A stretch of 63,745 bases of DNA, counting the filler, from Hausera hauseri (Eukaryota): the NCBI GenBank assembly GCA_046269625.1. It is 12 parts of 12 records of this genome, joined end to end, with 100 filler letters (N's around TTAATTAATTAA, not from the genome) between each part and the next. Parts side by side here need not be neighbours in the genome. Positions count along the whole stretch, not along the records: positions 9,895 to 14,326 come from JBJURY010584556.1; 11 more parts are not named here. The stretch is one strand, 5' to 3'. Shown here piece after piece: positions 331 through 62,499 of this stretch (position 1 is the first letter of the stretch; each line of letters opens with the position of its first letter). The notes beneath the pieces are model-generated. The model was given only the letters and a program-made list of their open reading frames with translations, ran no database searches and was not told where the DNA came from. Position numbers and translations under genes: made by a program.

Positions 331-529
331 CTGGCTGTTCATCGTAGCTGCAGTTCTAAGGGTAAGTTGCTGGGCTTCGCCAGACGTGTTTGCGAATGAC
401 TGCAACAATGGAGAATAAATTAAATAATCTCTGTAGGCAAATGTCATCAAAGCCTCCATATACCATTTAATATATATTGCAATAATTATTGGATTACTTT
501 TCTGTCAGTTGGAACTGGGAAAGAAAGGC

Positions 530-1215
530 ATCGTTATCGCGGATATTGCGCAAGAAGATGCACCAGTTGCGCATGAATAAATTCAAATGGGAAGCAATAT
601 CACCGGATGAGACAAAACCTAATCGACCAATGGTAATTGCGGTGTTCTTTTGAAAGGTTTTAGGTGTTACATGCGTATTGATCATGTTTATGAGATTTTT
701 GACGAATAGCGGCGCGAAAGGAGTTTGAAGAATGTTGAATAAATATGGCACCAATTCTTTAAACGCATCCTCTTTCCATGTTGCAAACGCCGAACATGCG
801 GCTTCCTGAACTCGTTTGTTTGAATCCAGAGTCATTTTCAACAATTCTTCCATCAAAGGTTTAAAGTACAATTCATGGGGCTGATTTACAATCCAATGCA
901 GGTATCGACTAAGTGCCCAACAAGTAATACTTCGAACTAACGGTTTGGTGTCACTTAAACACCGAATAAGGAATAGACAAAGTTCTGCTAAGTAGTGGAG
1001 CATTCCATTCGTGCAACCTTCTACAACAGCTCCAAGAACTGGGGTACCGGATTCTTTTATGAACCAATCATTGGAGTTCAGAGTATCATTAATTATGGAG
1101 AGTAGAACCTGCAACAAATCATTATGAAAGACACTTGTTAAGACATAAAGAGCAGCTGCGGAACATTTTCTTGATGTCCAATTGGAAAGATAGTCGTCAT
1201 CTTTACCGTCATCAT
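530..1215 (-). pseudogene. TNPO1: Transportin-1 (importin beta-2) fragment with large internal deletion
   Basis: [47 protein letters not shown], then a jump straight to C-terminal [29 protein letters not shown]. Confidence 0.9.
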
Positions 1216-1687
1216 CGGAATAAACATAACACGGACATTGTCGACGTTTCCATCGGATACTTTTGAAAAAAATAGTTCCGAAATAGACTGAGATGTTGAC
1301 AGGGAACTTCGATCCGAATGATCGACCGATGGTAATGAATTAGAATCGTGTTGATTGGCGTCTTTTTTGATTTCCGACATTTGTCGTTGTTTTCCGGTTC
1401 TCGAATTACCACAGATGTTTTATTCAGTTGTTCTAATTCTTCCTCGTTCACTAAGTTGCTAATGTCTCGCATAAGCGAATAAAATATAGACTTTGTATTT
1501 GCATGGAAAAAATGAGCATATTTTTACGATTCAAGACGGCAATGTTTTTCAAACTGCTCCTCGATGACGGAATGATTTTAGAACTTTTATCGGATGATAT
1601 TTTCAATCTTGGATGTAATTTGAAAATGATTTTCAAAACCAACGGACAAGCGAAATAGCACTGATCGAACTTTTTAGAAAAATCCGA

Positions 1688-3060
1688 AAATTCGTCAATG
1701 CAACAAACACCACCATCTGCCAATACCAAAGAACCGCCTTCCAAAGTCATTTCTCCACTCAAAGGATCTTTCATAACTGCTGCAGTCAAACCAACACCAC
1801 TGCTATCTTCACCAGTCGTATATTGACTTCTGGGACTAAGACGGTTAATAAAGCGTAACAACTGGGATTTGGCAACATCTGGATCACCCATCAAACAAAT
1901 ATTCAAATTTCCTCGAATTTTCCTCGAATTTGAGTTTCGTTCCACCAACAAGCATTATTAACAAAGTTTTCTTTATGTCATAATGACCGAATATTTCTGG
2001 AGCAATACTTCGAGCCATTAGAGAAAACATTTCACGATCGCGTAACCGCGCTATTTCTTACTCGGTAAATTCAATTGTACTATATGATTCGTCATCTTCA
2101 TCCCCTTTTGAAACCAAGGTTATACGTTGAGCATGAAGATAGGTATCCATAGTCAAACTCTGTTGCATAGATTTGAAACCAGTTCGAATACAAGGCAAGA
2201 ATATTCCACTTATGTAAATATGGTCACCCGGTTGAGCGACTCTCGTGTTTTCTCCAATGCAATGTACAGTCATGCCACGGGGAATATTTCCAATTGGAAC
2301 TTGTTCAGACACTTCCTGAATCCGGAGTTCTTGTACTTTGACACATTTGCTTCCTCTATTTTGCAAATGTAAAACTCCGGCACCTTCTCGCTTACAAACC
2401 TCACTCACACAATTGTGGATAGGTAGGAAAGAGGCATTAATGATTTCCTAAATAACAAAATATATGCAATAAATAAAAATTCCATCGAACTATGTTAAAA
2501 TAAATTGAATTAATGAATATCTTAAATCACCTGATAGGTTTCAGCCCCGCACTTGTCACAAGTGTAAGTGGCTACTTTCATCAAAGGTTTAACTTGAGTA
2601 GCCCGAGTAACAACAGCTCTAATTTTAATAAGGTGACCAATTTTATCAGATAAAACATTGCGAATTGCAACAGTTGGTACAGACTTTCTAGCAATAAAAT
2701 AAGCTTCGTATCTTCTCAATAATTCCGCTGGAAATTTATTTCTGATATCTTCATATGTTAATGGCTCTTGGGCATTATTTGCTGCAGCTGCTCGATGAAT
2801 TTGAATACGATGATCAATGAATGTATCAAAGGCATCGATGACAGTGTACGGGCCTTTCTCAAAAATTAATTCATCAATGACTTCATAAAATAATTTCTGA
2901 TATCGAAGGGCATTGTTTTCGATAAGATAGACTAAATCACTATCATGCTCGTAGACGTGATCCAAGTTAATGTAGATAGCCGGTTTAAGTCGTTTACTTA
3001 ACTCAGTAACTACATTATCGTATACATAATTTTTTCCATTTGGCGTATCTCTGATTCCAA
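1688..3060 (-). pseudogene. MCM7: MCM7 fragment (N-terminus to Walker B) with one intron 2448-2530, stop at 2058-2060 and a frameshift near 1955
   Basis: [85 protein letters not shown]; 83-bp GT..AG intron restores TYQ|EII. Confidence 0.93.
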
Positions 3061-3069
3061 ATATCTAAA

Positions 3070-4231
3070 TTATTCTTGCTCTTATCCAGAGACTTTAATA
3101 TCAGTGAATGGATCTGGGATGGTAAAAGGTGAATGAATTTTCGGAGACTGTGTAAACGTGCCATCATCTTGATCAGATTGATCTCCGATTTACTTTTATT
3201 TCATCTCAGACTTTGATTAAATTTAATGTACGGTTTTAACATAGACCGCCGAGATGGTCGATCACTAAACGTATGATTTTGATTCAGTTTCAACACTTGC
3301 TTAGAGGTCCTTAATTTCGTTCTACAAACTGTTTCCCATTCACCTTTCACTTTATCAATTTTGTATATTTTCGTTTCGGTCATGTTTGACTTAAAATTGG
3401 TATAATTAATATAGTTTAACTTCGATTGATTTTTCGAGGGCAGACGATTAGAACTATGTCGTTCTTTCACAGCATTAGATTTTTCTTGAGCTTTAGTATT
3501 GTAAGCTTTCTTTTCAGATGCAGGAACGGACAATTTAACTTTGTCAGCTCACGTACAGTTGGAAGATTCACAACTATTTTGAGAAATTTTATCACAATTT
3601 TCCTTCATTAAACTTTCTGTACACATTTGAGCATCCTTAGTCGGCTTAACTGGCACATCGGTTTGGGACATTGTTGATGATGATTGGCCAGAATACGAAT
3701 GCGTTCTACGGCTTTTTTTTCAAGTACCTGTTTCATAATTGGTTTACCAGGAGATATTTTACGTTCATCCCAAGCAATGAATAGTTGTCTATTTTCATTC
3801 TTCGACTTTTCGATTTCTTTAAACAAATTCATTTTTTCCATCAAGGAATGAAAGTCTTTTTTACTATGCTCTGGCATCATAATAACTTCTTTACACTCCA
3901 CTTCACTTTCATCTGCTTCAAAAGCAGAATAGATCTCATCAATAGTTCTTTTCAACGCATCCATTATTTGACCCCAATACCGAGCTCTGTAATCGCTTGT
4001 TTTGTTATTAATTTTCGAAACATTTAAATTCTCTGTAGATATGGTCAACGGTATTTGGAAGTTATCCGTTGGGACAACGTCACCACATTCCTGTGGTAAA
4101 CTTGGTGTAGTTTCAGCTTCACCCATTTTGGGATTTTCACAATTAACCTTATTTTCGACGATTACTTGACACTTTTTTGCTATGTAACGGAACATTGAAT
4201 TTAAATAAATTCCTTGCCTGGATTCCTTCAT
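3070..4231 (-). pseudogene. SCAPER: SCAPER N-terminal fragment
   Basis: DYRARYWGQIMDALKRTIDEIYSAFEADESEVECKEVIMM..IAWDERKISPGK, later T*ADKVK (W to stop) and GEWETV; frameshifted. Confidence 0.85.
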
Positions 4232-4534
4232 CTTCCAGTTTGTCTTTAATAGATAATGTACTAGTTTCTGATGGTTCAGTTATCATGCAATTATAAAACA
4301 ATAGTTTTGTAAGGACCGTTTGACAGTTTTCGGCCATAGTTATTCCCGTTTTCTCAGTCTTCCGAACCCTGCCAGGGATCATTCACACTCATTATTTTAC
4401 ATACTCTATTTTTGTAACACGCANNNNNNNNNNNNNNNNNNNNNNNNNNNNNNNNNNNNNNNNNNNNTTAATTAATTAANNNNNNNNNNNNNNNNNNNNN
4501 NNNNNNNNNNNNNNNNNNNNNNNCATTTAGAAAT

Positions 4535-6760: not shown

Positions 6761-6849
6761 TAACACAAATGTAGATGACATCTTAACGAATGACGGCAAA
6801 CGGGGATCCGGTAAATCATTTCTATCAGCTGTCTTAATAGAAAGGTTAC

Positions 6850-9225
6850 ATGAAAAATCATCGAACAAATCATCGAGTAAATCATCAACTGGTGAATTGT
6901 ATCAGAGCAACTAATGAGACAGCCGATATATTAATCAAACAAGCATCAGATGCTCACGATCGGATTTTAGCAAAAAAACAATGCCAAGAAGAATTAATGT
7001 CTTTCGATGAATTGAACCAAATGACCAAAAACAGACCTCGAAGTCGCCTTATGATGTGTATAGCAGCCGAAAATAAACAGCTCGAATTGCTTCAACAAGA
7101 AAATAAAATTCTCCGAACTTCCTTAACAGAATATCAAACGACATTTGAGATGATAATGCGGAAATTTCGAAAACATAAAAGTATATTCAAACGCCTCGAT
7201 GAATTGGAAAAAGGAGATATAAATTCGAAATCGATCAACAGCAACAGTTCCGATAAAGATGCATCGAGAAATCGCATTATGGCGTTATGTGCAAAAATAT
7301 CTCAGTCAAAAAAAGATATTGAAAAAGCTCTCATCGTTGATAATAAAGTAACAGAGGATTTAACCGAAATTGAAACGAAATTATTGCTGGAAAACCAGGA
7401 ATTACGTCGTCTCGTTGAAATCAATGAAGAATTTCGCGACGATTTTAATACAAATCATGTAAATGACGTTGGGAATAGTAATCAAGGAAACCATTATGTT
7501 AACAATAAAATTCAATACAAACCTCAAATTGATCATTCGGATAATAACAAGATTCTAATGAATGGAATTCCAAAAGATCGTACTGAAATCAATTCTACAT
7601 CTTCCAGTAATAATAAGCACAATTCAAAATTTCCATTGAAAATTGTCAATAATCATTCGTTCAGCAAAACCAGTCATAAAAGAGACAGTAACAATAAACC
7701 ATTTAATTCGGTTGTATTGAACTTCACAGACCGACTTTCGGATGACGAAGAAGAGGAAGAAAAGACAAAAAATGACAATTGTTTGGATAAATCGAAACCC
7801 ATACCAACAGTGGATCAAATAATGCAGCACAATTCTGACAACTACCTACGATTCTTTCAAAGTACCGAATGCCAAGTAAAAATTGAAAACTCTCAACATC
7901 AATGTGCTGAAACAAATACAGACAATTTCTATTTATTGACTGTTTTAAAAAATGAACCTGATTCTGATTCAAATTTTTCTAATGTTAACAATGAACCGGA
8001 AAATGTCTCCTTAAATCATTCACTTATCAGCTTTCTCGAATCATTTAATTCGAACGAAAATCAATTGGTAAAGTTAGAAAAGGCAATCATAACCACTTCG
8101 ATGTTGACAAATAAATTTGTAACTGCCACAGAAGACCGTTATAGAACCCGTTTGTACCAAAATATTAACAATGATTTCGAACAGATAGACTCCAGCAAAT
8201 CTTTCGAAATTGGATCTAACTTGGACAATAAAGCAGTCACATTGGACGCCACGTCACAAATATTCAAATTTAATGAAATATTTTCACTTACGAAAGATAT
8301 GACAAACAATAAATCAGGTAAAATAGACTCATTTGAAGATAAAACATTTACCCATAGCAAAAATCAAATTAAAACATCACAAGAAAATGACGTTAATGAA
8401 TTTGGATATCGTGTAAAGTTTCGCATGTTCAAAATAAATATATTAATAAATTATATAATAATGAGACGCAATCCAAAGGAATACAGCGTTGATTTTAATG
8501 AAAAGGATAGAAAGACGGAAGCCCATTTAAGGATTTTAATTTATACTGCAGAGCTTTATTCTACAGAATTGAGTCGAATTGCATCACATTATTATTGTAC
8601 TACAGAAACAATGGAAACTCTAAAATTGTATTTAACAAAATCAATGAGCGATATTGTAGTATTTAAAGTACTTACAAAATGTTCCAAATTTAAACATTTA
8701 ATCGTTTGTAAAGAATTTCAACATGAAACCAATAAATTACTCGAAAATGTTTCAATAACAATTAATGAAAATGAAAAATATGCCCATGCAAAAATCAATT
8801 GTCTCCAAGCATACATATCACAATTTAAATTGGAGAAATTTACTTTATCTACATATACTGTATTTATTTCTAAATCGTCTTACCGACTTATGAGAGCCAT
8901 GTTTGAAGTTAATCTATCGCGACGATGGGCTCAGTTATTAAATACAATTTTAAAATGTTGTAAAGAAGTAGAACAACGTATTTGGACATGTTCGTGTCCA
9001 TTAAGACAATTCAAAAAAGTTCCATCAGAGTTGAACATAATATCCGGCGCCAATAGCGCACCTGAATTGGGTGCTGTTGAGGAGTGGAATCAATATCACG
9101 GATGCGTTAAAATGCCCGTTTTTTTATTTTGGCCGAGACTTCTGAACACACTGCGACATCGGTATGCAATGCACATACATTGCTACATGTCTATGCTACA
9201 AAAGAAACATTTGGTCGACGACTAA
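6850..9225 (+). CDS. Chimeric 791-aa ORF: SIKE/FGFR1OP2 coiled coil + N/S-rich region + Brr2 (SNRNP200) Sec63 fragment + repeat-derived tail
   Basis: ELNQMTKNRPRSRLMMCIAAENKQLELLQQENKILRTSLTEYQTTFEMIMRKFR (SIKE family); TELSRIASHYY..AKINCLQAYISQFKLE..RLMRAMFEVNLSRRWAQL..CPLRQFKKVP (Brr2 Sec63, ~8450-9030). Confidence 0.8.
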   Translation: MKNHRTNHRVNHQLVNCIRATNETADILIKQASDAHDRILAKKQCQEELMSFDELNQMTKNRPRSRLMMCIAAENKQLELLQQENKILRTSLTEYQTTFEMIMRKFRKHKSIFKRLDELEKGDINSKSINSNSSDKDASRNRIMALCAKISQSKKDIEKALIVDNKVTEDLTEIETKLLLENQELRRLVEINEEFRDDFNTNHVNDVGNSNQGNHYVNNKIQYKPQIDHSDNNKILMNGIPKDRTEINSTSSSNNKHNSKFPLKIVNNHSFSKTSHKRDSNNKPFNSVVLNFTDRLSDDEEEEEKTKNDNCLDKSKPIPTVDQIMQHNSDNYLRFFQSTECQVKIENSQHQCAETNTDNFYLLTVLKNEPDSDSNFSNVNNEPENVSLNHSLISFLESFNSNENQLVKLEKAIITTSMLTNKFVTATEDRYRTRLYQNINNDFEQIDSSKSFEIGSNLDNKAVTLDATSQIFKFNEIFSLTKDMTNNKSGKIDSFEDKTFTHSKNQIKTSQENDVNEFGYRVKFRMFKINILINYIIMRRNPKEYSVDFNEKDRKTEAHLRILIYTAELYSTELSRIASHYYCTTETMETLKLYLTKSMSDIVVFKVLTKCSKFKHLIVCKEFQHETNKLLENVSITINENEKYAHAKINCLQAYISQFKLEKFTLSTYTVFISKSSYRLMRAMFEVNLSRRWAQLLNTILKCCKEVEQRIWTCSCPLRQFKKVPSELNIISGANSAPELGAVEEWNQYHGCVKMPVFLFWPRLLNTLRHRYAMHIHCYMSMLQKKHLVDD

Positions 9226-9894: not shown

Positions 9895-10760
9895 TTCACT
9901 TGTTAATATTTTCTTCATTTCGTCGAAAGCTTTCTGTTCGACGTCTGTCCATTTCCATTTAATTCCTTTTTTACGTAGACGATATAAGGGTGTATTTTCG
10001 AGTTGACCGGCACATAAGTGACATAATATCCAGAGATTTAACCAATGCCTTAACTCTTTCTGATTTTGTGGCTCCATGCATTCTGGTATCTTGTTCAATA
10101 ATGATTTATCTGGTTTTGATTCTCCTTCTCCAACTATATGGCTAAGGTAGGATACTGCGTTTTGAGCCCATTTACATTTCTTCGGATTTAATTTTAATCC
10201 GGCCTATTCCAGTCGCATCAGCGTGTGTTCAATATCCTTTAAGTGTTCCTCTTCTGTCTTTGACGCTATAATTACGTCATCTAAATATGCAAAAGTGTGG
10301 TCTTGTCCCATTAACATTTTGTTCAGCATTCTTGTAAAAATAGCTGGTCCTGTAGTAATACCGAAGGGCATGACATTAAATTCATAGACGCCATCATGTG
10401 TGTTGAATGCTGTTTTATATCGATCTTCGTCCTCGATTTCTACATGCCAATATCCGGATTGCAAATCCAGAGTGACAAACCATTTTGCTCCTGATAGTCT
10501 GTCTAGAGCTCCTTTTACTGATGGCAATGGAAGAGAATTTTTCATCATAAGGTTATTTAATGCTCTGTAGTCAATACAGAATCAATGTTTTGTAGTGTGT
10601 TTCTTTTTAACCATGAGGATTGGTGAATACCAAGATCTGTACTGGGCCTAATTATATCGGCCTTAATCATCCGTTCAACCTCCTTTGTTATCTCAGATCT
10701 AAGTGAATGAGTTGGAGGGTACTATTTCGGCATCTTCTGATCCTCAAGATCTATTTCTTC
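9895..10760 (-). mobile_element. Ty3/Gypsy reverse transcriptase (frameshifted)
   Basis: FCIDYRALN, LDLQSGYWHVEIEDEDRYKTAF, YEFNVMPFGITTGPAIF, AYLDDVII, KWKWTDVEQKAFDEMK. Confidence 0.95.
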
Positions 10761-10874
10761 ATTTGAACCAGGCTTTTCTTAAACGGAATAGTCAATTTTA
10801 AAGCTTTTGCCCTACCAATATCTTCGTCGTCCGTAGCAATAATCGACTTAGCCACATAATAATTCATAGAATTG

Positions 10875-13800
10875 TCAATACGGTTCGGAGGAAAACTTGG
10901 TTTCAACATGAGATGGGAATTCGGAATACTTGTAAGGCTTTTCTTCAATAGTTATAGATGACACTCTATACGTATCTCCTAAAGTAGTGTTAAGCATGAA
11001 GCTTGACGGGGTCGGTGCGTTATTTGCTATTCTGATCGGTACACGACCGGAGTGTACTCTTGTCAGTATGTTACTGAGTATTATATTCGGGTTTAATGTC
11101 TCCTTTGGTTCGAAATACACCGGTTGATCGTAATCTTGTTGAATTTGCGCGTAAATTATTATCTCTGTTCTCTGTGGAATATTTTCATCTACTGGTATCC
11201 ACACTTCTCTAAATCTTCTATCTTTAGCGTTTTTTACGCCTTTATTTGGTCTCACTTCTATTAATCTTCCTGTCTGCACGTCAATTGCTATATTTAGCAG
11301 TCTTTTCAGTAGATCACACCTTAAAACTACGTCGTCAGTTAATTGTTCCATAACGGAAAATTCGTGACGAAAAAACTGTCCAACTATTTGAACTTCTTGG
11401 TTCCATTTGAACATCAGTTTCGACATTTGTCCAAAAGCTCCTGTACTTTCCGGATCCTTTGTAGATGGTGGATATAATTGTCCTCTTAGCGTTTGAGGTA
11501 TCGAATCATTTTTAATGTAAGACATCTCAGAACCTGTATCGATGAATGCATAAACTTCCCAGTCTCCAATAATGATTTTGGTGAATGGTCTTCCTTCTAT
11601 TACTGTTCCGAAGCAATTGGATGCAGCTTTAGGGCGCTTAATCGCCCATATTTTATGTCCGTTGATTCGGAATTCTGGGATGGATACTATATTTTCCGAT
11701 AACAGCCTTATTTCTCCATTTGGATGTAATTTATTATTTTCGATGTTCAATTCTTCCGTTTCATGAGTACTGATTAATGGTTCTCGATTGTTAGTATGGG
11801 GTTCTATATTCCGAAAGGTTTGTAACCCTTTATTTTCCCGTACAGGCGGCCTAGTCAATATATTCCGAGGTTCTCTTGGGGAATACAATATTCTGGGGTC
11901 GTCCACGTGCTGTCGATAACACATTTTCCGTAGGACTCCATAGCGTTTCGTTCCTTCGTAGGAATCTTCTAAACTAGTTGTCCTTTTATAGATCTCTGTC
12001 TGGTATGAGCTCATTGATCGTTTATCGCAGTCTTCATAGACTGGAGCAGTAGGGGGTAGCATAGGTAATGGTGCTTTAATGATGGAATACGTCTCATGTC
12101 TGTCTTTTCTAGAAAGTACTTCTCCCTTTGGCTCGTCATCGTATGAATTATTTCTTCGCGTATTAGGTTTTGCGGATTTCCGCTTGTAAAAGAACATAGT
12201 TCGTTTACGATTATAATAACCGACATGTCGTTCTACGTCCGACATCCATTTATTCTCTTTGTATCCTTTCAAGAACTTTCCGAAAGGCGTTATGATCGCA
12301 GTCAGTATTTTACATGAAAATCCGGTTAATCTAAGTATTTCACACCCATTTATTACTGCATGGATTACGGCCTTAATCATTTGTATTAGGAAATATATCG
12401 CGAAGAATCCAGAAGCAGCTTGCCCAAAAATTAAAAATCTTCCCCAAATTTTGTAGAGTATTTCTGTGATTACTCGTTGATAATGGTTTACACCATGCAG
12501 GGATTCCCATTTAGCTTGATATCGAATATCATCTACTACGGAGGCCATGGCTCGATTTAATTCGTGTGTCCGCTGTCGCGGAAAAGCGAGAAATTGCCTG
12601 AAAGCTTCAACCTCCTTCGGTCTATATATGCCCTTTGACGAGGTATCTTGAAATTTATCGTCGGTAATCCCTTTTGCGAGATTTGTTCCTGTTAAATTAT
12701 TTGGAGCGCCAGTAATACCTCCATTAGGCAAACTAACCCAATCCGTTTCGCTACGCCTAAACATGGGTTCTCCTAAACTTGCTTTACAATCTTTAAGGAC
12801 CGTTGTTTCAGTTGCATTGTTTCATAATACCGTAGTAAGCGTTGTGGCTAACCTTGGAGTATTTTGGTAAATAACGGGAAGTTTCTGTATGCAACGTTTT
12901 TCTTCTACATTGATCGGTACGTCACTTTTCTCTCATTCATACGTCAATAAGACTTCACTGGTAACTCGACCGAAAATTCCTTTTCTCAGGAATTATTGGA
13001 GAGGCTAACTCGAGGTTAGCATAGATAAGAGCCAGTTTCGTCCTCATGATTTCCATATCCAATTTACAATCATTCGTTATCACTTTGTGATATAATTTGG
13101 TTATTCCTACTTGATCTGTGTAAGAAAAATAATCGTCTCGGTTTTTCAGGTAATCTTCAATCCGAATGTCCTGCGTTTCTATCTTATAAGTTTTCACATT
13201 TATTTCAATTGCCGCAACGAAAAGTGCTTCATAATTAGTAGCAAACGTCACCACTTCGCAACGAGAGATCATTTCTTTCTTAATAAACTTTTGTCCGTGT
13301 TGGTTGGAGATCAATATAGTAGGTGTAGGGTGTTCTGCTACATCCTCGTGTGCCCTTGAGTTACTATCGGATTTATCTACATACCGTTTTCCGGTGGTTT
13401 TGTAAAATTTCAGTTCCATGATTTTGGTAAAATTATAGCTTCTTCCAGAGGGCTGTTCCCATATTATAACCGAACTTCTGAAGGCACAGGTTCCGTCTTG
13501 TAAATGGCATTTTTGATTCTCAGTATATAATTTGGCGACGCTATGGAGCATTACCTTCTGTACCCGCATCTCCGATTCATAGAAATCTACGACCACTACA
13601 TTCGATTCTAATCCTTTTCCAGTGTCGTATTCTGCTCCATTACAATGTCCATTATGTATGTCTAGCCTTCAAACTACTACTTTATATGCTCTAGTTATCT
13701 TTCCTGGTTGCACCTCTAGTTCCATACTATCCCATTTTAATCTTCCGGTTTCTCTGGCCTGCTTACAATTCTGGCCTTTCAAATTCATCGGAATTATAGG

Positions 13801-13905
13801 AGTCGTTGGTTTGATGATTGAAGAATGTCCATGCATTAATCCACAGTGAAAAGTGAGGCAAAGTCGGCGGATCGAAATCCTGAATCTCACTTGGTTTCTT
13901 GTCGC
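10875..13905 (-). CDS. env: Chuvirus-like (class III) envelope glycoprotein fused in frame to Gypsy aspartic protease; N-terminal env part degraded
   Basis: RISIRRLCLTFHCGLMHGHSS, CHLQDGTCAFRSSVIIW, CIQKLPVIY, SKGIYRPKEVEAFRQFLAFPRQR, TM WGRFLIFGQAASGFFAIYFLIQMIKAVIHAVING; the same ORF (10875-12764) continues to protease YAFIDTGSEMSYI. Confidence 0.82.
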
Positions 13906-14326
13906 ACATAATTCAAATTAAAGTCTAGAGTTTTTAAAAAGTATTTATTTTTTATCTAATATTTAAACAAATTAAAAATAAATAATAATTTTGCTTATTA
14001 TTTTGCTGCTCCATTACTTTCCCCTCTTCTTTATGATTCTTGCTCACACTTTTCAATCATTCCACTCTTCTAGGAATCATTCTACCCTCTTCCATGTTTT
14101 TCAGCTTCTACTGATGCTGCGAAATTTGTTGAATTATTTGATACGGTCCTTCGAACTGATAAGCATCTTTTCTTCTTTTCTAGGGATCTACTTTCACGAA
14201 CACTTTCTGTCCAATTTCAAAATTTCGTTTCCCTCTCTTCTCCCCCTCCAAATTTTCCATTCGGTTAGCTGCTTCTGTAGTATGTCGTGTAATACTTTGT
14301 GTCAGTTTGCCGTTATCGATCTCTCT
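13905..14326 (-). mobile_element. Nested second Gypsy: integrase C-terminus, PPT and short LTR-like repeat starting AGTAATGG
   Basis: FEIGQKVFVK..QFEGPYQIIQ (GPY/F module), purine tract AAGAAGAGGGGAA, then a repeat from 14018 shared with 42163-42239. Confidence 0.7.
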
Positions 14327-14519
14327 NNNNNNNNNNNNNNNNNNNNNNNNNNNNNNNNNNNNNNNNNNNNTTAATTAATTAANNNNNNNNNNNNNNNNNN
14401 NNNNNNNNNNNNNNNNNNNNNNNNNNTATCATGCTTTAGCAAAAAGTCAATATATAATACAAAATTATGAAATATATTCAGAACCACTTAATTTTTGTTC
14501 GAATAGAAAATTAATTTTT

Positions 14520-15155
14520 TATGCTATGACAACGACGTATGAAATTCTTATTTCAGACCTTTTCCTTTTTTCTAAATTTCTACGGACTGCTGCCATTATC
14601 GATGGCGCACGTCATTTCAAAAATAAGCCAGGCAAAACTTTTGAAGGATTGAAAACGTCCGATTTAAGACTCCTAGTTCTACTCAAAGGCACACCACCTT
14701 ACAATAATGCACAAGAATTATCTAATCTGTCAAATTTGTTGGAACCCTCGAAGTTTTTCTCAAAATCAGATTTTTTAATGCCATGCGGAGATTTAAGAAA
14801 TGAAGAGCAAGTTGCCAGTCTGAAGTTACCGTTGAAACCCATGCTGTTGTCTCGTTCGGAAAATTTTGAGAAGCATTTGGCTCCAAAATAAGAAATCATT
14901 GTCGTAGTAGCACTAACCGATAAGCAGAAAACATATCACCGAGCAATACTCGAGAGAAACTTTTCATTTTTGCCCAAAGGAACTTCCGGTAACAATGTGC
15001 CAACTTTAACGAACATGACGCTAGAATTAAAAAAATGTAATAATCTTTTTCTTATGAAAGACGCCGAAGAAGCAATTCTGCATAATCTGAGAAAGAGTTC
15101 TGATAAGGGCAATATCACAAAATACTTGCAAAACAAAAATACTGATGAAGAAAAA
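14520..15155 (-). pseudogene. Possible degraded GPCR-like (TM5-loop-TM6) fragment
   Basis: Hydrophobic YCSVICFLLISATTTMISYF, long loop, then KRKRSEIRISYVVVIA; many stops. Confidence 0.25.
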
Positions 15156-15160
15156 TAGCA

Positions 15161-18100
15161 TGCGGGGAACTCGGTCACCCCGAATTTTGGGATTCGCCGC
15201 GGCGAGGCTGAAGTCTTGGCCGCCCACCCTATATCACTGGGTCGGATGGCACCGTTCGCTGACGCCCCACGACACGCCCCTGGCCATACGATTACTTCGT
15301 TTTTTTTCGTCTTTTTTTTTAAACAACCAACACATTTACACAACTTCATCAACATACGCAAACATCACAGATTTCTATAACGTCATATCCACTTTTTTCA
15401 CTCATCTGACTTTTATCTTACACACACAATGGCTCTACAGTACCTATCACCGGAACCTACAATCTTCTTCAACTTATGTCTACCTTCATATACATTTCCG
15501 CATCCGTGATGGCATGACTTCATCACTCACCATAGACACCACGGACAATCCCATCAAACCATCGATTTCAACCACTTACTTCCTCAAACAAAGTGCTTCA
15601 AACACTCCGTCACAGAAAACACTTTCCACTTATTCACCCTGCACAGAATACTTCCTCGACACACAAAATTCTACCCAAACATGGTTAAAACTGCATAAAT
15701 TCGGGCGCCAATCACAAAGCGTCGTCGACCCCTTATCCAAAGCCAACAACCTGTTTTTTCATTTACCTACTTCTATCAAAACCAAAATTACGAGCATCAT
15801 TGACATCCTTCACCACAACATATCCATATGTTCAACTTTACAATGCTGTTCTTAAGCTCACTGAACCGTCAATCGATTCTATCATTCAAAGGTTCTTTAA
15901 TGACAACGCAATGGGCCTTCAGAAACCTTTTGAGTTCTTGCACACATCCTTATTCCATCTCAATACCCTTGGAGTAACATCTGAGCATAGTCCAGGACTT
16001 CTTCGTCGCTACGTTTTAAACGCATTGTCCCTTCAATTAAGAGCTTTGCTCACTATGGTCGAAGACTCCACGGCACTGGAAAAGTTAGCCGACCTGGCGA
16101 ATAAAGCCTATGAAGTGCTGCACTCATACACAGCACCAACTGTCTCTGCGGCATTAACAACAAACCACCAACAACAAAATGTAATGCTGCAGCAACAAAT
16201 TTCGCAATTAGGCACAGACAACGAAATGTTGCAAAAACAATTAGTAATATAAATGAGAAATTAAATGAATTAACGCAGCCTCGACGAGGTTTTTCTAGGG
16301 CTGCTTCCCCTGATGTATTTCGTTAAGCACAAAGACTGTCGCCTTCGACCGCGAGGTCGTCTATCTGCTATTATCATAGCAAATTTGGTAACAAAGCTCA
16401 GAAATGTTGCATTGGTTGCAAATTTTACACACCCGATTTTAATACAGGTAATACCATTTGCATCTAACACGCAAAATTTGGAACAAAAGCACAAAATGCC
16501 AACCCAGCTATAACTACAAAACGCACAATAAAATCAACACTATTAAACTCACACAAAATAGTAGGCCAAACTTAACAGCTACAAAAACTGATTTCGTCGC
16601 TAGGACACACAACAAGTTCTAGCAAAGGCTACAATCTACAAAAAGCCGGCCGACACATTTCTTTTGCTGTAATCGCGTTGGAAGCGGCAGTCTTCACTCC
16701 AACAAAGCAAAACATTAATTTTCTCATAGATACCGGCGCAGCAATCTCATAACTACCACCAACACAGTACATCCAAAATATTTTTGCTTCAAAAACCAAC
16801 TGTTCACTGCATCCGATGAACCTTTACAAACTTTTGGAATTACTAAATTAACTTTTACCCTACCAAATTTCCCAAACATATTGGCCCGGAAATTCACAGT
16901 AACCAATGTAGGCACACCCATAGTGGACTCAGACTTTTTGTCCCACTATAATTTACTTGTAGACTGCAAACGATATTCCTTAAAGAGCGGGAATAACATT
17001 AATCAATTTAGCAGAATTTCGGTGACCACCCGGGCGACCGTTGCCAGGAAGTCAATACTAAAGAAAACGACTTCCGATTTGAATTATTTTTATACTCATT
17101 CATTATACAGAAATTTTTATTACGGTAACAAATACGATATTGCCAACTGCATGGCACCCATTACTGATAGTACAAATGCTAACACTATCTTCAACACGAA
17201 CATCCTGCACCTAATAGCACCCTGTCACAACACCTCGTCTACAGATCATACCTCAACTGCATCCAGCAATTTTATTACAGCAATATATTTCATCTTCCAG
17301 CACGCGTCTGTTGCAAAAGGACAAATTATTCGTACCACCTAAATCCACCTTCCATCACATAGTAACAGAACATCAAAGACCAATACGTCAAAAGGTCCGC
17401 CCGCTATCGCCTCGCCGCAGACAGGCAGTGGAGGCTGAGTTTCTCGAACTGGAAAAATCAGGAATAATCAGAAGATCCAAATCTCCTTGTCTTCACCACT
17501 ATATGTGGTTCCAAAAAAGATGGTACCTTTCGCTTATGCGGTGGTTACCCCCAACTCAACACTATAACAATAATGGATGCCTACCCTCTGCCATTAATTA
17601 ACGACATCCTTCACAGGCTCCATCGTTTCACCATTTTTTCTTGCATTGATTTGCACAAGGAATACCGCCAAATTCCGGTGGCCCCAGCAGACATTCCGAA
17701 AAAGGCTGTCGTTACACCTTTCGGCCTTTTCGAATACCTTTTCTTGCCTTTTAGACTCCGTAGCGCTTCCCAGACCTTCCAACGGCATATTGATACAGTC
17801 CTCTTAGGTTTAAACTTTGCTATATAGATAATATCCTAATTGTATCATCTTCTTCAAAACAACACACCGAACACTTACGTTCAATCTTTCAGCCTTTGCA
17901 ACAAAACAATATGCAAATTAATTTCTCCAAATGCTCCTTTTTTCGACATAAGGTCAACTTCCTAGGACATGTTATTAGCTCATCCGGACATCCACCTCAG
18001 CCAGAGCGCATCACAAAGCTCAAAAACATACAACTACCACGTACATAAACATAGATGCGTTCCTTCCTCGGAACCTTGCATTTTATTCACAAGTATATTC

Positions 18101-20785
18101 CACACTGCTCAACTCTAGGCGCTCCATTTGCGTCACTAAGCTCTGACGAGGAAAAACAGCCTATTCGATGGACAACCAAACTAGTCAATGCTTTCAATCA
18201 CCTCAAAGACAATCTAAAAACCGTGGAAATCCTGGCCTATCCCGACTCGCATGCAGAACTCTTCTTAACCACGGATGTATCTACAACAGCTGCAGGTGCT
18301 GTCCTCCATCAAGTTAAAAATGGATCCCATGAGCCATTAGAATTCTTTTCTCAAAACTTCACGGCACAAGAGCAAAAATATTCTACCTTTGATAGAGAGC
18401 TGCTTTCAATGGTCCTTGTAGTAAAACACTTTAAACATCTGCTAACTGTACGAACTTTGACAATACAAACGGACCACAAGCCCTTGCTTCAAATTCTCAC
18501 CATGAAATCGCCTTCTCCACGTCAGGAGAGGCAAATATTGTATTTGTCCACATTCAATTTTGAAATTAAGCATTTAAACGGACTCGACAATTTGGTAGCT
18601 GACTTTTTGTCCCGATCGGTCAGCTTGATTAATTTTACGCCAATTTTCCCTCAATCCACACTTCAATAAAACCAGCCACCTCCTGACATCCTTAAATCTT
18701 TTAAATCGTGCAAAGCCATCACCGGTGTGGTTTCTGACACCTTCAAACCTAGTAATACTAATATCATCCTTTCCAAATCTCTTCAAAAAGAAGCATTTAA
18801 CAACATCCATTCCTTGCATCATCCCGGTGCGAATGCCACCTTTCGACTCTTACAACTCCAGTAGTATGGCCGTCGATGCGCTATGACGTACAGGCATGGG
18901 TTAGGCAGTGTGTGGCATGCCAAAAATACAAATTTACTAAGCATTTAAAGCCACAATTATATCATTTTCCTTGCACATCTCATTTTCAATCTGTTTGAAT
19001 TGACCTTCTAGGCCCAATACCCTTAGACAACGGTCATCAGTTTATCCTCACTATGATGGACCGTGCCTCGCAATGGTCAGAGGCTGTCTCGCTTTGGAAT
19101 ACCAACACAGAAACAATCGCAGACGTTTTCATCCGCACTTGGATCAGCAGGCTTGGATCACCTCGCCATATCATCTCGGACCAAGGCCCACAGTTTGAAT
19201 CCAACTTGCTCAAAGCTCTTGTCAATCGATTGGGAATTAATCACATTCACACGTAACCCTATCATCCTCAATCGAATGGCCTTTTTGAACGCTTCCACCG
19301 AACGATGAAAACGTCTCTTAAAATCCTTTCTCAGTCCGATCGCACTTGGACCACACTACTTGCGTACGTTCTGCTTGGCTGGCGGAACACACTATCTACT
19401 TCTACAGGCTGTTCACCAGCAGAAGAATTATTTGGTACTTCTATCAGACCATTATTCGAGCTGGCTGAGCTGGATAATATTCCTACAGACGAAACCATAC
19501 AAGCAGCCCAGACATACTTTGTTGCGATGAGCAAAGACTCGTTTTGTAGACTGTTACAAGGCAATAAACCCTACATACCCGATGATTTATATAATGCTAA
19601 GTTTGTGTGGCTAAAGAATCAGACACCGTGTGGTTTTCAACCTCAGTATGTTGGCCCTTACAAAGTAATTCGTTTACACTCCCACAACGTCATCATCTTC
19701 AAGGTCGACAAAAAGTGACAGTCCACATCAACAATGCTAAGCCGGCCTTCTCCATTGACGATACGTCCCCCATTGAGACCATTTCTCCACCAACATCTCT
19801 ACGCGACGTGCAGCAATCCAAAAATTCACTCGTATTTCTGTTCAATCCTTTAATCCACTTTCTCCTACTTTTCTCTCAATCCTTCTACTTCAATTTTTCC
19901 TGACAGTTCATCCCCTTTTTCCCCATCCGATTCTGCACTTTCAAGCCTCTTAACACCTCCTTCATCCACTGGTTACAACCTGCTTTCCTCACCTACGAGA
20001 CTTTCTCCGTTAATCACCACTTCTACTTCACCAATCTCTCCACCTACACCTTTCATCATTCCAACCTCTTGTATGTCACCTTCCAACTCCTGTGCTTCAC
20101 CTTCTTTATCTTCTTACTCTCTTCCGTCTTGCCCCTCTTTCTCTCCCTCTTTCTCCTTCCACATCTTTGACATCTCCGGCGCCCTCTTTCTTCCTTCTTC
20201 CTAACAAACCATCTTCTACTCCTCTCATTTTTACTTCGCAACTTCCGCCTCTCTTAAACTCTAGTCCTTCTTATCCTTTGTCTCATCCTTCTTTGACAAC
20301 TTTTACTTCTTTACTTCAAACTTCACCCAACACAATCCCAAAACCAACATCGGTTTTACAGCAGATTCATCTGCAAAGAAACAAACCACGTATACGAGCA
20401 AACAAAACCGTAATATTCAACAAATATTGCAGAGTAAAATACCAACAATTAACTGAATGCCTTGAAACAATCCACTTTTAAATATACCTTCACCCTTTAG
20501 CGCTGCTGTTTCTCCTTTTGTCGTGCTTTACAGTTCTTCAACTCGGCCACGGGGAAGGGTGATGTGGTGCTTATATGATTTTCCCCCTGGCCGGACGGGA
20601 TCGGGGGTTTATTGTTCCCCGGGCGGCGCGCAAGTCCGGGACCGAACGCCTCCCTTTTTCCCGGGTTTTGTTTTGCGGCCGTGGGGTGGTGAAAAGTGCT
20701 ATATGAAGAACAAGCAGGATCTCGGACTCTTTGACAGCAGTGGTTCCTCTGGCAAAACTTGTTCTAATCACGTGTAAAACCGACA
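15161..20785 (+). mobile_element. CsRN1/Kabuki-clade-like Ty3/Gypsy element, nearly full internal region, decayed; no matching 5' LTR seen
   Basis: gag MGLQKPFEFL..LEKLADLANK with CHCC knuckle CYYHSKFGNKAQKCCIGC (16366); protease FLIDTGAAIS (~16720); RT DAYPLPLINDIL..TPFGLFEY; RNase H YSTFDRELL, TDHKPL; integrase ISDQGPQFES, YVGPYKV; PPT GGGGAAGGGTGA then TGTGGTGC at 20563. Confidence 0.92.
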
Positions 20786-21066: not shown

Positions 21067-21845
21067 ATGTCTTCAATCACAGAATTGTTTGATCTGAATA
21101 GTTTGTTTGATGGGAATAACTTTTCTGAATGGGCAAATCAAGCTTTTGCTAATTCCGAATTTTCAAGTAATTTGGATAAATTTGTTTCCACCAACTATGG
21201 AGATAGTTTGAAAGAAATTCACAGTCAGGATTTTGAAGTAAACAAAATGAGATATGCGATGAAATTATTCTAAAGTATGATATTGACGAATCAATTATAC
21301 AGGATATTAGTAACAGTGGTTTCTATCAATTCCACATTGAGTTAAATGCGTTGGAAATGAATATTACAAAAATTAGACTCCATAGTTTGTCATATTTTGA
21401 CAAACATGACTCGATATTAAGTGGCTGCTGGTAAAAGTGTTTGACCTTTGACAAGAGCTATCCAGTCAGAACTCGAGTTGTCTCAATATATGCTGATGAT
21501 GGTAGCAACGTTGTTTACTTACCCGGTATCGTTGCTGAACCACCAAACAGTCGTAATAGTCATCGGTACTTGGTGTTCTTCGATGACGGTTACGTGCAGT
21601 ACTCTTTCCAAGACGAAGTCTATTTTGTGTTTCAGCAAAATCTTGACAATTTGGAAAGCATGAATGCCGAATCCCAGGAATTCGCCAAAGGATATCTGGA
21701 CAGTTATCTCAAACGACCAGTGGTGAGAATGAAAGTCGGCCAGATCATCAAAGTTGAATACAATTCCGAGTGGTGTCCGATGAAAGTTGAAATAGTCGAC
21801 GCCAGTCTTGTATACGTTTGCTTTGAATCGACGCATTGAGAATAC
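21067..21845 (+). pseudogene. SETDB1: SETDB1/eggless Tudor-domain fragment
   Basis: RTRVVSIY..LPGIVAEPPNSRNSHRYLVFFDDGYVQY..YLKRPVVRMKVGQIIKVEYNSEW..VEIVDASLV; truncated, with stops. Confidence 0.85.
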
Positions 21846-27877: not shown

Positions 27878-30800
27878 CTTCCTCTTCTCCACTCATTATC
27901 TCAATACCACTGGGATCAGGCAGGTAGAATGGAGTTGTTGCCAACAGCTCTCTCACCTGAAACATTATCAGGAATTTCTCTAAGTATAGTTCTGGTTTTT
28001 TATGTCACCGTTAGAATAAAAAAAATTTCGGCATAAACAAGCCAAAAAATGAACTTAAATAATGAAACAAGATGATTGCAAGCCAAGGTATAACACAATG
28101 TTAAGTCATCTATTTTCATTAACATAAATAAAAATTAAACCGTGTGGCAATTTTCCCTCAGATCTGACAGGTGGCTTGGACTCTGAGGAAAAACCTGCTA
28201 ATCTGGCACAAATTTAATCCAAACATGAATACAAATGGATTAAAAATTTGCCAAATAAAAATAAAAACAAACAATCAAACTCTCTGAAACACCACACACA
28301 TCTGTTTCCCTTGGTCTGGTGGAAGTACCACATACACCTGTTCCCCTTGGTCTGGTGGAAGTACCACACACATCTATTCCCCTTGGTCTGGTGGAAGTAC
28401 CACATACATCTGTTCCCCTTGGTCTGGTGGAAGTACCACACACATCTGTTCCCCTTGGTCAGGTGGAAGTACCACACACATCTAATCCCCTTGGTCTGGT
28501 GGAAGTACCTCACACATCTGTTCCCCTTGGTCAAGTGGAAGTACCACACACATCTGTTCCCCTTGGTCAGGTGGAAGTACCACACACATCTGTTCCCTTT
28601 GGTCAGGTGGAAGCACCACACACATCTGTTCCCCTTGGTCTGGGTTTGACATCAAAAACCAACATTGACCTGCTTTATCTGTAGCAACCACAATTTCATT
28701 TTCTATAAAACCACACACAAAATTTAAAAAAAAAAGGGTGTGCATTACAGAGGCTGCTGCTAATCTGAACATGAAAATACAGATGACATATCCATGTGAC
28801 TGGCTTAAAGTAAGTAACTGAAACTACCAAGAGAATGCAGATGTGGTGGTGTAGGAGGTAGTGTACTCATTAGTAAATCACATGGTTGTGGGTTCAATCC
28901 CAGCATTGATGGGTTGATTTTTTTTTGTTTTTACGAGACTGGCTCCAGGGTTTCTCTGGAAATTAAAAATAACCTGGCATTATGCTAACAACATGACTCA
29001 ATAGTGCGTCAGCAGTCTAGGAAAAATGTGGATCCTAGCTCTATATTCTGCATGAATGGGAACCTTTACAAAATACTGCTACAGGCATCTTGCATTTGTG
29101 TATTAAACAAAACAAGTGGGATTAGGAAGGCGTAAAAAGAAACACTTTGTCAGAAACATTATGTGAATCTTGGCACTATTTGAAAACCCAATTGGAATAA
29201 GGTAAAACGCATTTATAAGGAGCTGCTCACCACTTTTATGATCTGATCAGCTTTTGCCCTAGGCAACAAACGAAGTCCTGCAGTTGCTTTAAAAGTAAGT
29301 AGTGTCAGTGGCCGGTATAATTTAGGAACACTTTCTATGGCCTTCTGAAGTAAAGGCAGAAGAGCTTGTTGTGCCTAAAAATACACCACAATAAGAATAT
29401 TTGTAGAACTTTAAACAGTGTAATTTACTATTATACATACATCTGTCTGCTTCTTGCCTTTGTTCTGACACACAAAATTGCAGAGGAAATTAGAAGTAAA
29501 ATTAAAAGGACAAGTGTAATGACATCTGAAAATGACTGATACATGGTACACCACAAGTGAGTCAGCAGTTTTTCATAAAACTAATTAAATACTGAGGAAT
29601 CATCACTCAGATCCAAGAATTCATTTTGTACTTCACCAGAAATGCTGGCTAGAGGCAGGGAAGCAGGCAATATGCTTCAAACCAGCACAATTTCCTTGAC
29701 AGTAAGGTCAGCAAAGTACTGCTGTTCAGTAATCCTCTCCCACCAGATTCTCATACAATGCACCATCTGACTTCTCTACCACAGTGCAGAGAATTTCAAA
29801 AAACGGCAATGTTTCAAAGACTTACTTTTTTGCCACCTTATTTGTAGATAAGGTGACGTCAACAAAACAGATGGGGTAATCTTAAAAGAGAGCACCATAT
29901 GGGAACTGCAAAGACTGTCTATATTCAAAACTCCTTTATCAATGATTTGCTTTTCATTTATTAGAAGCGGTGTTATAACAATTTGTAGAATACTGTAGTG
30001 TAGTCATTTTGAAATAAACAAATAAATATTGTAAACCTTTCTGTTGAAACGTCCAATAAAAATAACAAATAAATTATAATAACCACAGCAACCAACTGAA
30101 AGCACTTGGTGGGAAGGGGGATTTCACAACCCAAAGGTTGGGCCCTACTGGTTTGAAGCCTAGATTTTCAGCAAGTAGAAACAAACTGACAAAGTGATCT
30201 TATATTGTATCTACAACATTATTTGAATAATGTCACAATTATTTTGATATTCTTCTATTTCTCAGTCAGGGCCAGGATTCAAACACTGTTCAAGAATTCT
30301 CAACATTTCCTTGTAGTGCATTCTGGTAAAAGAAGATGTAACCTCCTGCATGGTGATGACACTGCAATCCAGTCAACATTTTTCCAAAGGGTGTAACAGA
30401 AGCAGCCGCGGTGGTGTTGTTGTTAGTGTGCTCATCTGCCGATTATGTGGTCATGGGTTCAATCCCAGCTGTGGGCACTAATTTTTATTAAATTAAAATG
30501 GCTCTAGGGGCCCACCAGTCTAAAAAATTTGTACTGGAGAAATTCTCTGGGAAAGTAAAGGCAACCTAGCGTTATGATGACAACATAACCCAATTATGTA
30601 CCGATGTCAAAGAAAAAATGTGGACACTGACTCCACATTTACCTTTACATCTGCTTAGGCGTGTAAAGGAACTTTATGGAAGAGAAGCTCTGCTGACACC
30701 CAAAACAGTGGGGCATGCTCAAAAAAAGTTTAGGCATGCATCAAAGCCATGAGTTAGTTGACAAGTGATCACCACTGCATATGGAGGAAGTCCATAAGTG

Positions 30801-32780: not shown

Positions 32781-35700
32781 AAAGGTCATAGCGCACGAGT
32801 CAACTCTAACGTCAACTTCGATAACACCAAACTGACAAACGGTGCTTTAAATTTTCTACGCAAATTTCTCCTGATTTATAACTTTCCTACTTCTACGTTC
32901 TCAACTCTGAAATTCTCCTCCAGATCTGAAATAATAATATTCTTAACTAACCTCTCAAGAGCAATCTTACCCTCAGCAGAACAAAAAATTATAAATCTGA
33001 TGAATAATTATAATATCATTACTTATGAGAACTCTGAGATTCCTCATAAATACCAATCCAAAAAATAAGCACACCCAGTACTCTAACATATGACCACCCA
33101 TTAATCTGACCCTCAACTCCTGCTATAACTCAACAATTTATAACTACTCAACCTACATCAACACTAACCATTACTGAAATACTTAACACATGTACTAAAG
33201 AACTAACCGATAGTACTACCCGAACGTCTATAGAATGCTACCTGAAATCCCCACTTAATACCAAAAATGATACACCACAAATAGAAACTAAAAATTCTGA
33301 AATCACAATTAAACCAACTGACTTTTCTTTGACTGAGACCATCTCTACAAGTGAAAATCACACTTACCCCAATACTAATTTTCCCTCTCATGCAGACCAA
33401 CTCAGTTCACCTACACAGCTTGTTTCCTTTATCTCTTCTTCTTCCACTTCTTCCTCCAACAAATCTTATTCCGATATCCTTAAAACTCCTAAACCTACAA
33501 ACGTAGCAGTTACTTTCAACCATCTGGACACTCCTCTTATTAATATTGGTAAAGATTTCAACAATTCAGTAAAACGCAAACTCAGAAAATGCAAACTTGA
33601 GACATGGTTCTTGACGGATGAAATTGATTATTAGGGCTACCAAATTTTCCTCAGACATAAAGCCTTATATATCTCATGGAATCTATTTCAAATTGCCTTT
33701 CCAAATACTACTGATGTCTTCACGCACCTTCACCTATCAACAAAAGATGCTAAACTAATACACTCCACTACTCACACATTCGTCTCACTCTGGCACAACC
33801 ACCACTGGTTACTTGCTTATATAAACAGAAATACCAGTTCTCTATATCTAATTGATCCCTTCTAATCCTCCGAATACACCAAAATCCCCAGGCAACTGTT
33901 ATATGCACGCCTTGATGTCTTCAAAGCTGTATTCAACATCCCCGAGTTAACGTTAAGAGGTAAATATGAACATAAAGACCACCAACCTCTCTCAAACTCT
34001 AATGACTGTGGTCCCTATGTCTGTGGCTACATGCCTCAACTAGCTGCAGATGCCACATATCTTAAAGTGGATGTAGAGTCTATACGAGCCTCCACCAATC
34101 TCTCTCCGGAATCTCGTCTATCAACCAATACTCCTGCCAAACCCTCATACACCGCTGGAGCTCCAAACTCCACCTCTGATGACTCCTCCAACTAACCAAC
34201 TAGTACTACAATGCAACCTAGGTCGTTGTTCCTTCCAATCGACATTCATACATAACACCTCTAAATTCCAACACGGAACCTTTCAACACTTAAAACTAAA
34301 AATTCACACCTCAGTCCCACACGACTCAGCCTTCTATTGCCTACTCTGTAAAGCCCAATTATCACTAACATCAGCCACCCGCCATTGCCGTGATACCCAC
34401 CGAGACGAACACAGTCAGGAAAACCCTACCTCTAACAACCTTCTAAAATTCCATAAATTTAACAATATAGATATCCCAATACAATCCTCGGATATTGACA
34501 GTGCATGGCTAAGTGACTGGACGATCGAACTCTACATCCTGGTGAAATGCGCTGATTATCCTGGTGTTCTGTTTGTGAATCCTATGTTGGCGTCTGCACT
34601 GCTAAAATCTGATGAAAGATCTCTATTCCAACATTTTCCCTTTAATTATTTTGCCAACTGGCAAATTATTCTGTGGCCCATATGCGTACGAGCCTCTCAC
34701 TGGTTACTCTTTGTCGCTGAACGCCCTAAGCACTGCTGCTTCCTAATCGATCCTGCCACCAATGGACCCACCCAAGAGCACACCGACAACCGCCAAACTT
34801 ACTGAACTACTATACCACTTCTTATACATCTCGACAGAGGAAGGCTTGGACAACTCTTTCCTTCATGACTACCCGTTACAACAAAAATGCGAGGATAGTG
34901 GTCACTTCGTGCTCCAATATTCTGTCCATTATGGCCAATACAGAAATCCTTTCTTTCCAAACTGCGACCCTAAAAAATGATAAAAGATGTAGCACAACTC
35001 GTACTTGAGTACCTGGACTTCCAAAAACTCAAGAAATAAAGAAGATAAAACCACCCATCCCTTTATTGAGAAAGCCCTATTATATATAAACACATCAGGC
35101 CTAGGGTCCACATACTTTCTCAAGGAAGCATCAAGAGCCAAAGAAGAACTCTTCCCAACACCTGAAAAAAATACCAGACACACAATCACAAACACTCGCC
35201 AAACGGAACAATCGTATCTCCTCCTTAAACTGGAATATAAAAGAGCTCTAAAATTGTCTACAATAAAATATTACATTCGTATATCAACATCTCACCCCCC
35301 TCGAGACAAACGGTGATTAGCCACAATACTCAAACCTCTCCAAACATTCCGGACATCAACTATACTTTCTATAATGCTCCCTTTTCCAAAGACGCCTTCA
35401 CTAACTCACCAATCTCCACTGACGATATCAAAAAAACTTTGAAGAAATGCAAAAAAGCATCCCTGGCGAAAATGACATCAAATACTCACACTGGAAAACC
35501 TTAGACCACAATTTTACTGCTCTGGAAACGTTATTCAACTATGTCCTCCTAAACTTGGACATCCCCGCAAAATGGAAATCATTCAGAACTACCTTGATAC
35601 CCAAACCAGGTCAAGAAGACTATTCATGCCTAATATCCTCATGGCGTCCAATTGCAGTCCTGGACACCTCTTACCGTATCTTTACCAAAATCATAAATAG

Positions 35701-42162: not shown

Positions 42163-42239
42163 TATTTATTTATCCAATATTTAAACAAATTAAAATAAAT
42201 AATAATTTGCTTATTATTTATTTTTGCTGCTCCATTACT
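42163..42239 (-). repeat. Start of AGT-type LTR-like repeat inserted in pPolB
   Basis: Near-identical to ~13942-14018, with a shared boundary TTGCTGCTCCATTACT. Confidence 0.7.

Positions 42240-62457: not shown

Positions 62458-62499
<42 letters not shown>

Follow-up and report, generated by a model that had tools for sequence, protein, structure and literature searches.

Does an envelope gene (env) that runs in frame into the protease (PR) of a Ty3/Gypsy retroelement reflect a genuine gene order, or is it a chance fusion of decayed elements? The question is raised by a locus of Hausera hauseri (GCA_046269625.1) in a window of 63,745 nucleotides, by which we mean the whole stretch of DNA analysed, made up of separate contigs chained by N-linkers. 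The element studied sits on the minus strand of one of these contigs (JBJURY010584556.1; 9895-14326, 4432 bases), which stops inside the connection region of its reverse transcriptase (RT). In our assessment the stretch is very probably a decayed, 5'-truncated, Burro-like Ty3/Gypsy long terminal repeat (LTR) retroelement with env and protease in one frame. Its intact relatives encode a polyprotein in the order gag-env-PR-RT-RNase H-integrase (IN), likely threaded through the membrane of the endoplasmic reticulum (ER) and cut by signal peptidase and by its own protease.

The env-protease reading frame

The features of the element are the following.

12988-13872, minus strand: env ectodomain, N-terminal part (domains I-II region); PF24664, tblastn to P0001 residues 207-513, in-frame stop at 13671
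12264-12989, minus strand: env ectodomain, C-terminal part, after a frameshift near 12989; PF24664, stops at 12935 and 12824
10875-12821, minus strand: open frame of 648 codons, stop to stop, with the env C-terminal ectodomain, anchor, linker, protease and PR-RT spacer
12363-12437, minus strand: predicted env transmembrane anchor, from hydropathy; conserved in relatives
12270-12320, minus strand: second, weaker hydrophobic stretch, conserved in relatives; hydropathy below the threshold of 1.6 in all but 1 of 21 proteins
11595-12269, minus strand: hydrophilic env tail or linker, 225 codons, stop-free; PTAP motif at 12053-12042
11301-11594, minus strand: retropepsin-type aspartic protease (PF00077); DTGS at 11540-11529, second conserved motif altered in the window copy
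10641-11300, minus strand: conserved PR-RT spacer, broken by the stop at 10875; tblastn to P0105 residues 1241-1558
9898-10632, minus strand: Ty3/Gypsy RT and start of the connection region (PF00078, E 9e-25); stops at 10584 and 10206, cut by the contig end

An initial annotation had placed an open reading frame (ORF) at 10875-12764. This ORF exists, its extent being that from the first ATG within the stop-to-stop frame, and its described content was recovered in full: the fusion glycoprotein domain, a hydrophobic anchor, a hydrophilic linker and a retroviral protease with its DTGS motif all lie in one frame. Pfam locates Monjiviricetes_fusion (PF24664) at residues 55-186 (E 1.3e-18) and RVP (PF00077) at residues 410-507 (E 1e-4). 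The linker between them remained stop-free in none of 100,000 base shuffles, and the remaining two frames hold 11 and 22 stops over the same region; the linker was therefore under coding constraint.

The remainder of env had been placed upstream. Pieces there, on the same strand, do match the PF24664 profile (positions 81-123 and 149-354), but the gene is incomplete: env homology starts only at 13872, which corresponds to roughly mature residue 55 in P0001 (tblastn), and is interrupted by stops and a frameshift. The RT had been said to follow the protease immediately, which is not the case, as the two are separated by about 230 codons of conserved spacer, the stop at 10875 and a change of frame. 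This spacer has no Pfam match, despite its alignment with relatives; a dUTPase-like domain is described for the PR-RT region of the planarian element Burro (PMC6431247). The assignment of the RT to Ty3/Gypsy was upheld by the PF00078 match and by an identity of 42-45% to the RT regions of Gypsy env-pol proteins, env being 23-30% identical to that of the relatives.

The proposed class III nature of the glycoprotein (chuvirus G or herpes glycoprotein B (gB)-like) likewise found support. PF24664 is present on three window pieces, and a model of the env of P0007, a relative and not the window copy, gave Foldseek matches to herpes gB (E 2.3e-11) and chuvirus-type G (E 1.4e-28), with a mean predicted local distance difference test score (pLDDT) of 47.5 and residues ~200-340 mostly above 85. 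As evidence for class III the model is limited to local structure. An env profile searched against PDB sequences returned proteases only and no relative of env. The window thus combines a Ty3/Gypsy-type RT after the protease, a class III-type env, and an env in frame 5' of the protease. A separate env ORF 3' of the integrase, as in canonical gag-pol-env elements and in Anakin, is not what is found, as the window env runs into the protease.

Relatives with the same gene order

A word-based search with the env part recovered none of 534 candidates as longer relatives, and an exhaustive search yielded 97 proteins, 20 of which, picked by rank or length, were covered by a Pfam domain scan. Env followed by protease in one chain was found in 12 of the 20 (in three of these with RT), env only in seven and pol only in one. 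Among the 13 hits at E<=1e-10, 11 were scanned and 10 of the 11 have env and then protease in one protein. With the P0002 env as query among long proteins there were seven matches, six of which carry env, PR, RT, RNase H and IN. In total nine proteins hold env, PR, RT, RNase H and IN in one chain (P0001, P0002, P0098, P0101, P0102, P0103, P0105, P0110 and L002). Gag stands at the start of the chain in P0102 and P0105, and L002 is, at the DNA level, one frame of 2693 codons from gag to beyond IN; in none of these three does a stop or frameshift separate gag, env and pol. The window is colinear with the env-pol relatives across env, protease, spacer and RT (tblastn). The env-PR junction is hence not peculiar to the window copy, the same order being present in intact relatives.

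Among metagenome contigs a single-protein query gave 49 stretches, none of them related. A search with alignment A2 gave two loci among 593 metagenome-contig stretches, and none among 42 stretches in genome contigs or 100 in viral contigs.

The relatives are variable in their accessory parts. A Bcl-2-like domain precedes env in P0007 (E 1e-3), ankyrin domains occur in P0098 and P0125, and a ubiquitin-like domain in L001 (E 5e-3). Multiple aspartic protease domains per chain, some of them after the integrase, were seen in P0098, P0008 and P0101-P0103, together with ankyrin and C2H2 fingers; P0098 (4844 aa) has seven Pfam protease stretches. P0070 (1000 aa) carries three Ig domains ahead of a complete chuvirus-type glycoprotein, and in P0031 (705 aa) RT and RNase H run straight into the C-terminal half of a chuvirus-type env with no integrase between them. 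In L001 (61-4266), gag and the ubiquitin-like domain are followed by a lone in-frame stop (3058-3060) immediately ahead of the env signal, which may reflect decay or readthrough control. P0002 (HBK71150.1) is labelled as a protein of a Flavobacteriaceae metagenome-assembled genome, yet it is an animal-type env-pol retroelement polyprotein, and is likely mis-binned.

The RT also links the window copy to this group. Its five best bit scores among 132 RTs all belong to env-pol proteins (201-181; next 178). The spacer before YxDD could be parsed in 121 of 133 rows (12 not): it is 24 residues long in 17 rows (11 env-pol, P0125, the window and four others) and 26 in 95. The signature LMxxxH, which like the 24-residue spacer was defined after inspection of the sequences, occurs only in the window, 10 of the 11 env-pol rows and P0125, and in none of the 95 rows with a 26-residue spacer. 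A pairing of the window RT with P0211 in a FastTree tree was taken as long-branch attraction, P0211 being a long branch with neither signature. The window element appears to be a divergent env-pol member whose placement owes more to the signature than to the trees.

The 5' boundary and the surroundings of the copy

The window copy is dead because of in-frame stops (13671, 12935, 12824, 10875, 10584 and 10206) and frameshifts (near 12989, near 10640 and within the connection region). The signal peptide, the first ~55 residues of mature env, and gag are absent from it. Two features are found in their place.

14021-14326, minus strand: integrase C-terminal (GPY/F-like) tail, likely of a second LTR element; phmmer to the IN tails of P0078 (E 2e-4) and P0103 (E 9e-3)
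13946-14032, minus strand: polypurine run (14032-14019), then repeat start (14018-13946), likely the 3' LTR start of the second element

The frame at 14021-14326 has no Pfam match. A second occurrence of the repeat, which starts at 14018, lies at 42163-42239 (89% over 79 nt), where the flanking sequence differs. In run X1, which is one study, possibly close to the source, with contigs counted at >=85% identity and where depth is no copy number, depth climbs across the boundary from 15,581 to 107,857-294,522, a 3- to 10-fold or higher step. We infer that env is cut short here by a second LTR element of higher abundance, whose 3' end forms the region 5' of env.

The same arrangement could be read as a chance in-frame junction, in which a deletion joined the PR-RT of a neighbouring element to an element of the canonical pol-env type (integrase tail at 14326-14021, then env). 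The integrase tail does stand directly 5' of env, one X1 contig joins 13888 to 13943, and the trees do not firmly tie the window env and RT to one clade. Against this, a polypurine run and an LTR-like repeat start lie between the integrase tail and env, the env N-terminus is missing there, and the depth step falls at the boundary. Furthermore, many intact relatives show the env-PR order, their signature is present in the RT of the window copy, and the linker lacks stops over a length that chance does not explain. We therefore regard a chance junction as very improbable.

Several observations nevertheless weigh against a Burro-like env-PR element. The contig shows no gag, LTR pair or IN of the env-PR element itself. 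X1 places 17,018 contigs on the element stretch and covers 30 of 30 bins, linker included, with linker depth at the lower end (1,540-1,820 in 11671-12114); among the eight X1 contig pieces displayed, however, none bridges anchor and protease. The RT bit-score margins are small, the RT signature is post hoc, and P0099 was counted as env-pol by cluster membership, having no env of its own. In a quick RT tree (60 of 133 rows) the window falls in an unstarred group of 23 (SH-like approximate likelihood ratio test, SH-aLRT, 84) with all 11 env-pol rows and 11 others, and in the env tree its branch is long and emerges between other glycoproteins and the env-PR group. The TM-scores of the P0007 model are low (0.15-0.23), and the model is of low confidence and comes from a relative.

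The other contigs of the window carry animal genes (SCAPER, SIKE, SETDB1-type Tudor, transportin and MCM7) and several other Gypsy pieces. Pieces of transportin, MCM7 and SCAPER lie within 4.4 kb (494-4279), and look like decayed gene copies because the P-loop motifs of MCM7 are altered and the frames broken. A single stop-free frame of 794 codons (6841-9225) links a SIKE domain with a Sec63 Brl domain, with WD40 fragments upstream. Fragments of an SNF2 helicase, SETDB1-type Tudor domains, a Ulp1 protease (weak) and phosphofructokinase are located at 14427-14888, 21435-21836, 34077-34805 and 37401-37892. Another decayed Gypsy pol without env is present in two copies that are 77-89% alike (16719-19718, plus strand; 57674-59575, minus strand), a further gag-PR-RT at 59867-63090 and a gag at 49681-50589. 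Two adjacent in-frame ORFs of 395 and 242 aa (39952-41868) are without a Pfam match. The remaining observations are a 36-nt tandem array (28214-28715), an inverted repeat of 148 nt with a loop of 35 nt (46048-46378) and a short dispersed repeat in three copies (28857, 30422 and 53579).

Known elements and the predicted polyprotein

The layout had been put forward as possibly undescribed. It has already been published: planarian Burro carries env between gag and pol in a shared frame (Arkhipova and Yushenova 2019, PMC6431247), and from Nematoda, Bryozoa and Platyhelminthes Gypsy elements of GAG-ENV-POL order with a gB-type env are described (Chary and Hayashi, eLife 2026, PMC13524379). [quoted passage not shown] Chuviral glycoprotein capture had been ascribed to BEL/Pao elements; it is indeed known there, but is not confined to them, as it is also found beside a gypsy pol (PMC13524379). 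For arthropods, excerpts of PMC10084718 give no clear case of Gypsy capture. The BEL/Pao element Anakin (Dezordi 2020) has a glycoprotein of the same superfamily; it differs in not being Gypsy and, as far as described, in an env that is not in frame before the protease.

The closest likeness by description is to the giant planarian Gypsy elements Burro/GYPSM1, with a single ORF, an env with mononegavirus fusion glycoprotein matches in frame between gag and protease, a conserved domain between protease and RT, and high copy number; the accessory domains of Burro (Bcl-2, ubiquitin-like, BIR and ankyrin) have counterparts in the relatives only (Bcl-2-like, ubiquitin-like and ankyrin), whose length reaches 4844 aa. 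The window copy differs in being a decayed fragment with one protease before RT, and the comparison is by description, not by alignment to a named Burro sequence. Burro transcripts in planarians increase upon PIWI loss (PMC8532177). With the errantiviruses of PMC13524379 the window copy shares a Ty3/Gypsy pol and a gB/chuvirus-like env 5' of pol. Of ~229 env rows of the supplement, Smed_errantivirus_1-6 alone combine YQE and TNY, the motif pair of the relatives' env; this comparison is by motif and not by alignment. The same paper describes ORF order, its nematode and bryozoan env look like other subtypes, and in its main text, as excerpted, the words 'fused', 'single ORF', 'polyprotein', 'fibronectin' and 'late domain' do not occur. 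The window env itself keeps the TNY-region motif. The nematode endogenous retroviruses (NERVs) of Sacco et al. 2022 reportedly have one continuous gag-env-pro-pol ORF. They differ in that nematode env rows in the excerpted supplement of PMC13524379 are without the YQE and TNY pair. The window element is thus of known architecture: among the GAG-ENV-POL Gypsy elements of Burro-like type it is a new, divergent and decayed member.

How such a chain might be used is suggested by its anatomy. A signal-like hydrophobic stretch directly precedes env in each of the 17 relatives whose env start is intact, and the anchor and the weaker second stretch are common to all relatives (hydropathy). By analogy with well-known polyproteins, Gag would be synthesised first, on the cytosolic side; the internal signal would then direct the ectodomain into the ER lumen and be cleaved by signal peptidase; the env anchor would bring the chain back to the cytosol, where PR-RT-IN would at first remain attached to the env tail. 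Trimerisation of env would raise the local concentration of protease monomers, and the resulting dimers would release Pol at or after budding. Tail motifs, PTAP in the window and LYP-type in relatives, which we take to be late-domain-like, would recruit the endosomal sorting complex required for transport (ESCRT). Of the 19 tails compared, 14 carry [LIMHV]YP, against a mean of 1.3 and a maximum of 6 in shuffles. The earlier suggestion that Pol is membrane-tethered and then freed by its own protease fits this anatomy. Were the second stretch at 12270-12320 membrane-spanning, the protease would be lumenal and the tether model would break; hydropathy argues against spanning, and the stretch is likely membrane-adjacent. 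Other points speak against this scheme: hydropathy is the sole basis of the predicted topology, the window tail has PTAP and no LYP motif, and the tails are related, so that motif counts are not independent. The window copy cannot itself perform such a cycle because of its stops and frameshifts, and because its gag and signal peptide are apparently replaced by the 3' end of the second element.

Two other uses of the same gene order may be considered. The fusion could be a coding arrangement only, with splicing, readthrough control or early cleavage giving separate or unequal products instead of one tethered chain. Gag, Env and Pol in a ratio of 1:1:1 would be unusual among retroelements, linker length ranges from 51 to 311 aa, and the L001 stop lies between gag and the env signal; that stop, however, is a single case that may be decay, and P0102, P0105 and L002 are uninterrupted across gag, env and pol. 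We consider this unlikely. Alternatively, env may no longer serve extracellular spread, acting as a membrane scaffold for intracellular particles or in direct cell-to-cell passage. The entry mechanism of gB-carrying elements is stated to be unknown (PMC13524379), which would leave room for such a role, but the whole ectodomain with its cysteines, signal and anchor is kept across relatives that are only about 25-45% identical, and we find a scaffold role rather doubtful. The tethered polyprotein remains our preferred reading.

The relatives add a further membrane protein; the window contig ends before the integrase, and the feature is known from relatives alone. After the integrase, seven of the nine complete env-pol chains, and P0125, have a hydrophobic stretch, an ectodomain of 127-395 aa with cysteines and sequons, and a C-terminal anchor (P0001, P0002, P0098, P0101, P0102, P0105, P0125 and L002, the last at L002:7700-8518). 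No second signal-ectodomain-anchor segment was found past the integrase of P0103 and P0110. The motif C..L...T.Y is present in six of ten rows compared. For the ectodomain of P0102, a model (mean pLDDT 51; residues 185-250 at 76-89) matched contactin FN1-3 (Foldseek E 3.7e-5) and fibronectin (VIA Z 8.9, root-mean-square deviation 2.6 over 81 residues), with other Ig-like sandwiches within 1 Z, and a fibronectin type III (FN3) fold is predicted. The L002 and P0105 ectodomains look unrelated to it. Atlas matches, all below 0.9 and to be taken as leads only, were FN3-type for P0125 and viral glycoproteins for L002, and a PDB sequence search with alignment A4 gave at best the IL-22 receptor (E 0.35). 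No mention of a post-integrase FN3-type protein was found in the literature searched or in the excerpted text of PMC13524379, a scope that leaves aside figures, Grohme 2018 and Sacco 2022.

It is tempting, if still speculative, to view Burro-like elements as two-glycoprotein enveloped retroelements with a polyprotein in the style of flaviviruses or alphaviruses. The gB-like fusogen would be joined by a terminal FN3 signal-ectodomain-anchor protein as attachment partner or receptor mimic, the env tail would supply ESCRT late domains, and the window element would represent a divergent lineage, possibly in an unreported host phylum.

The layout being published, what the window copy mainly adds is a divergent, high-copy lineage. 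The family itself poses the questions of how a single chain gives capsid, envelope and enzymes in workable amounts, and of how a gB-like fusogen enters cells without the gH/gL partners of herpesviruses. The post-integrase FN3-type protein is a candidate partner for that fusogen, and could be tested as such in planarians.

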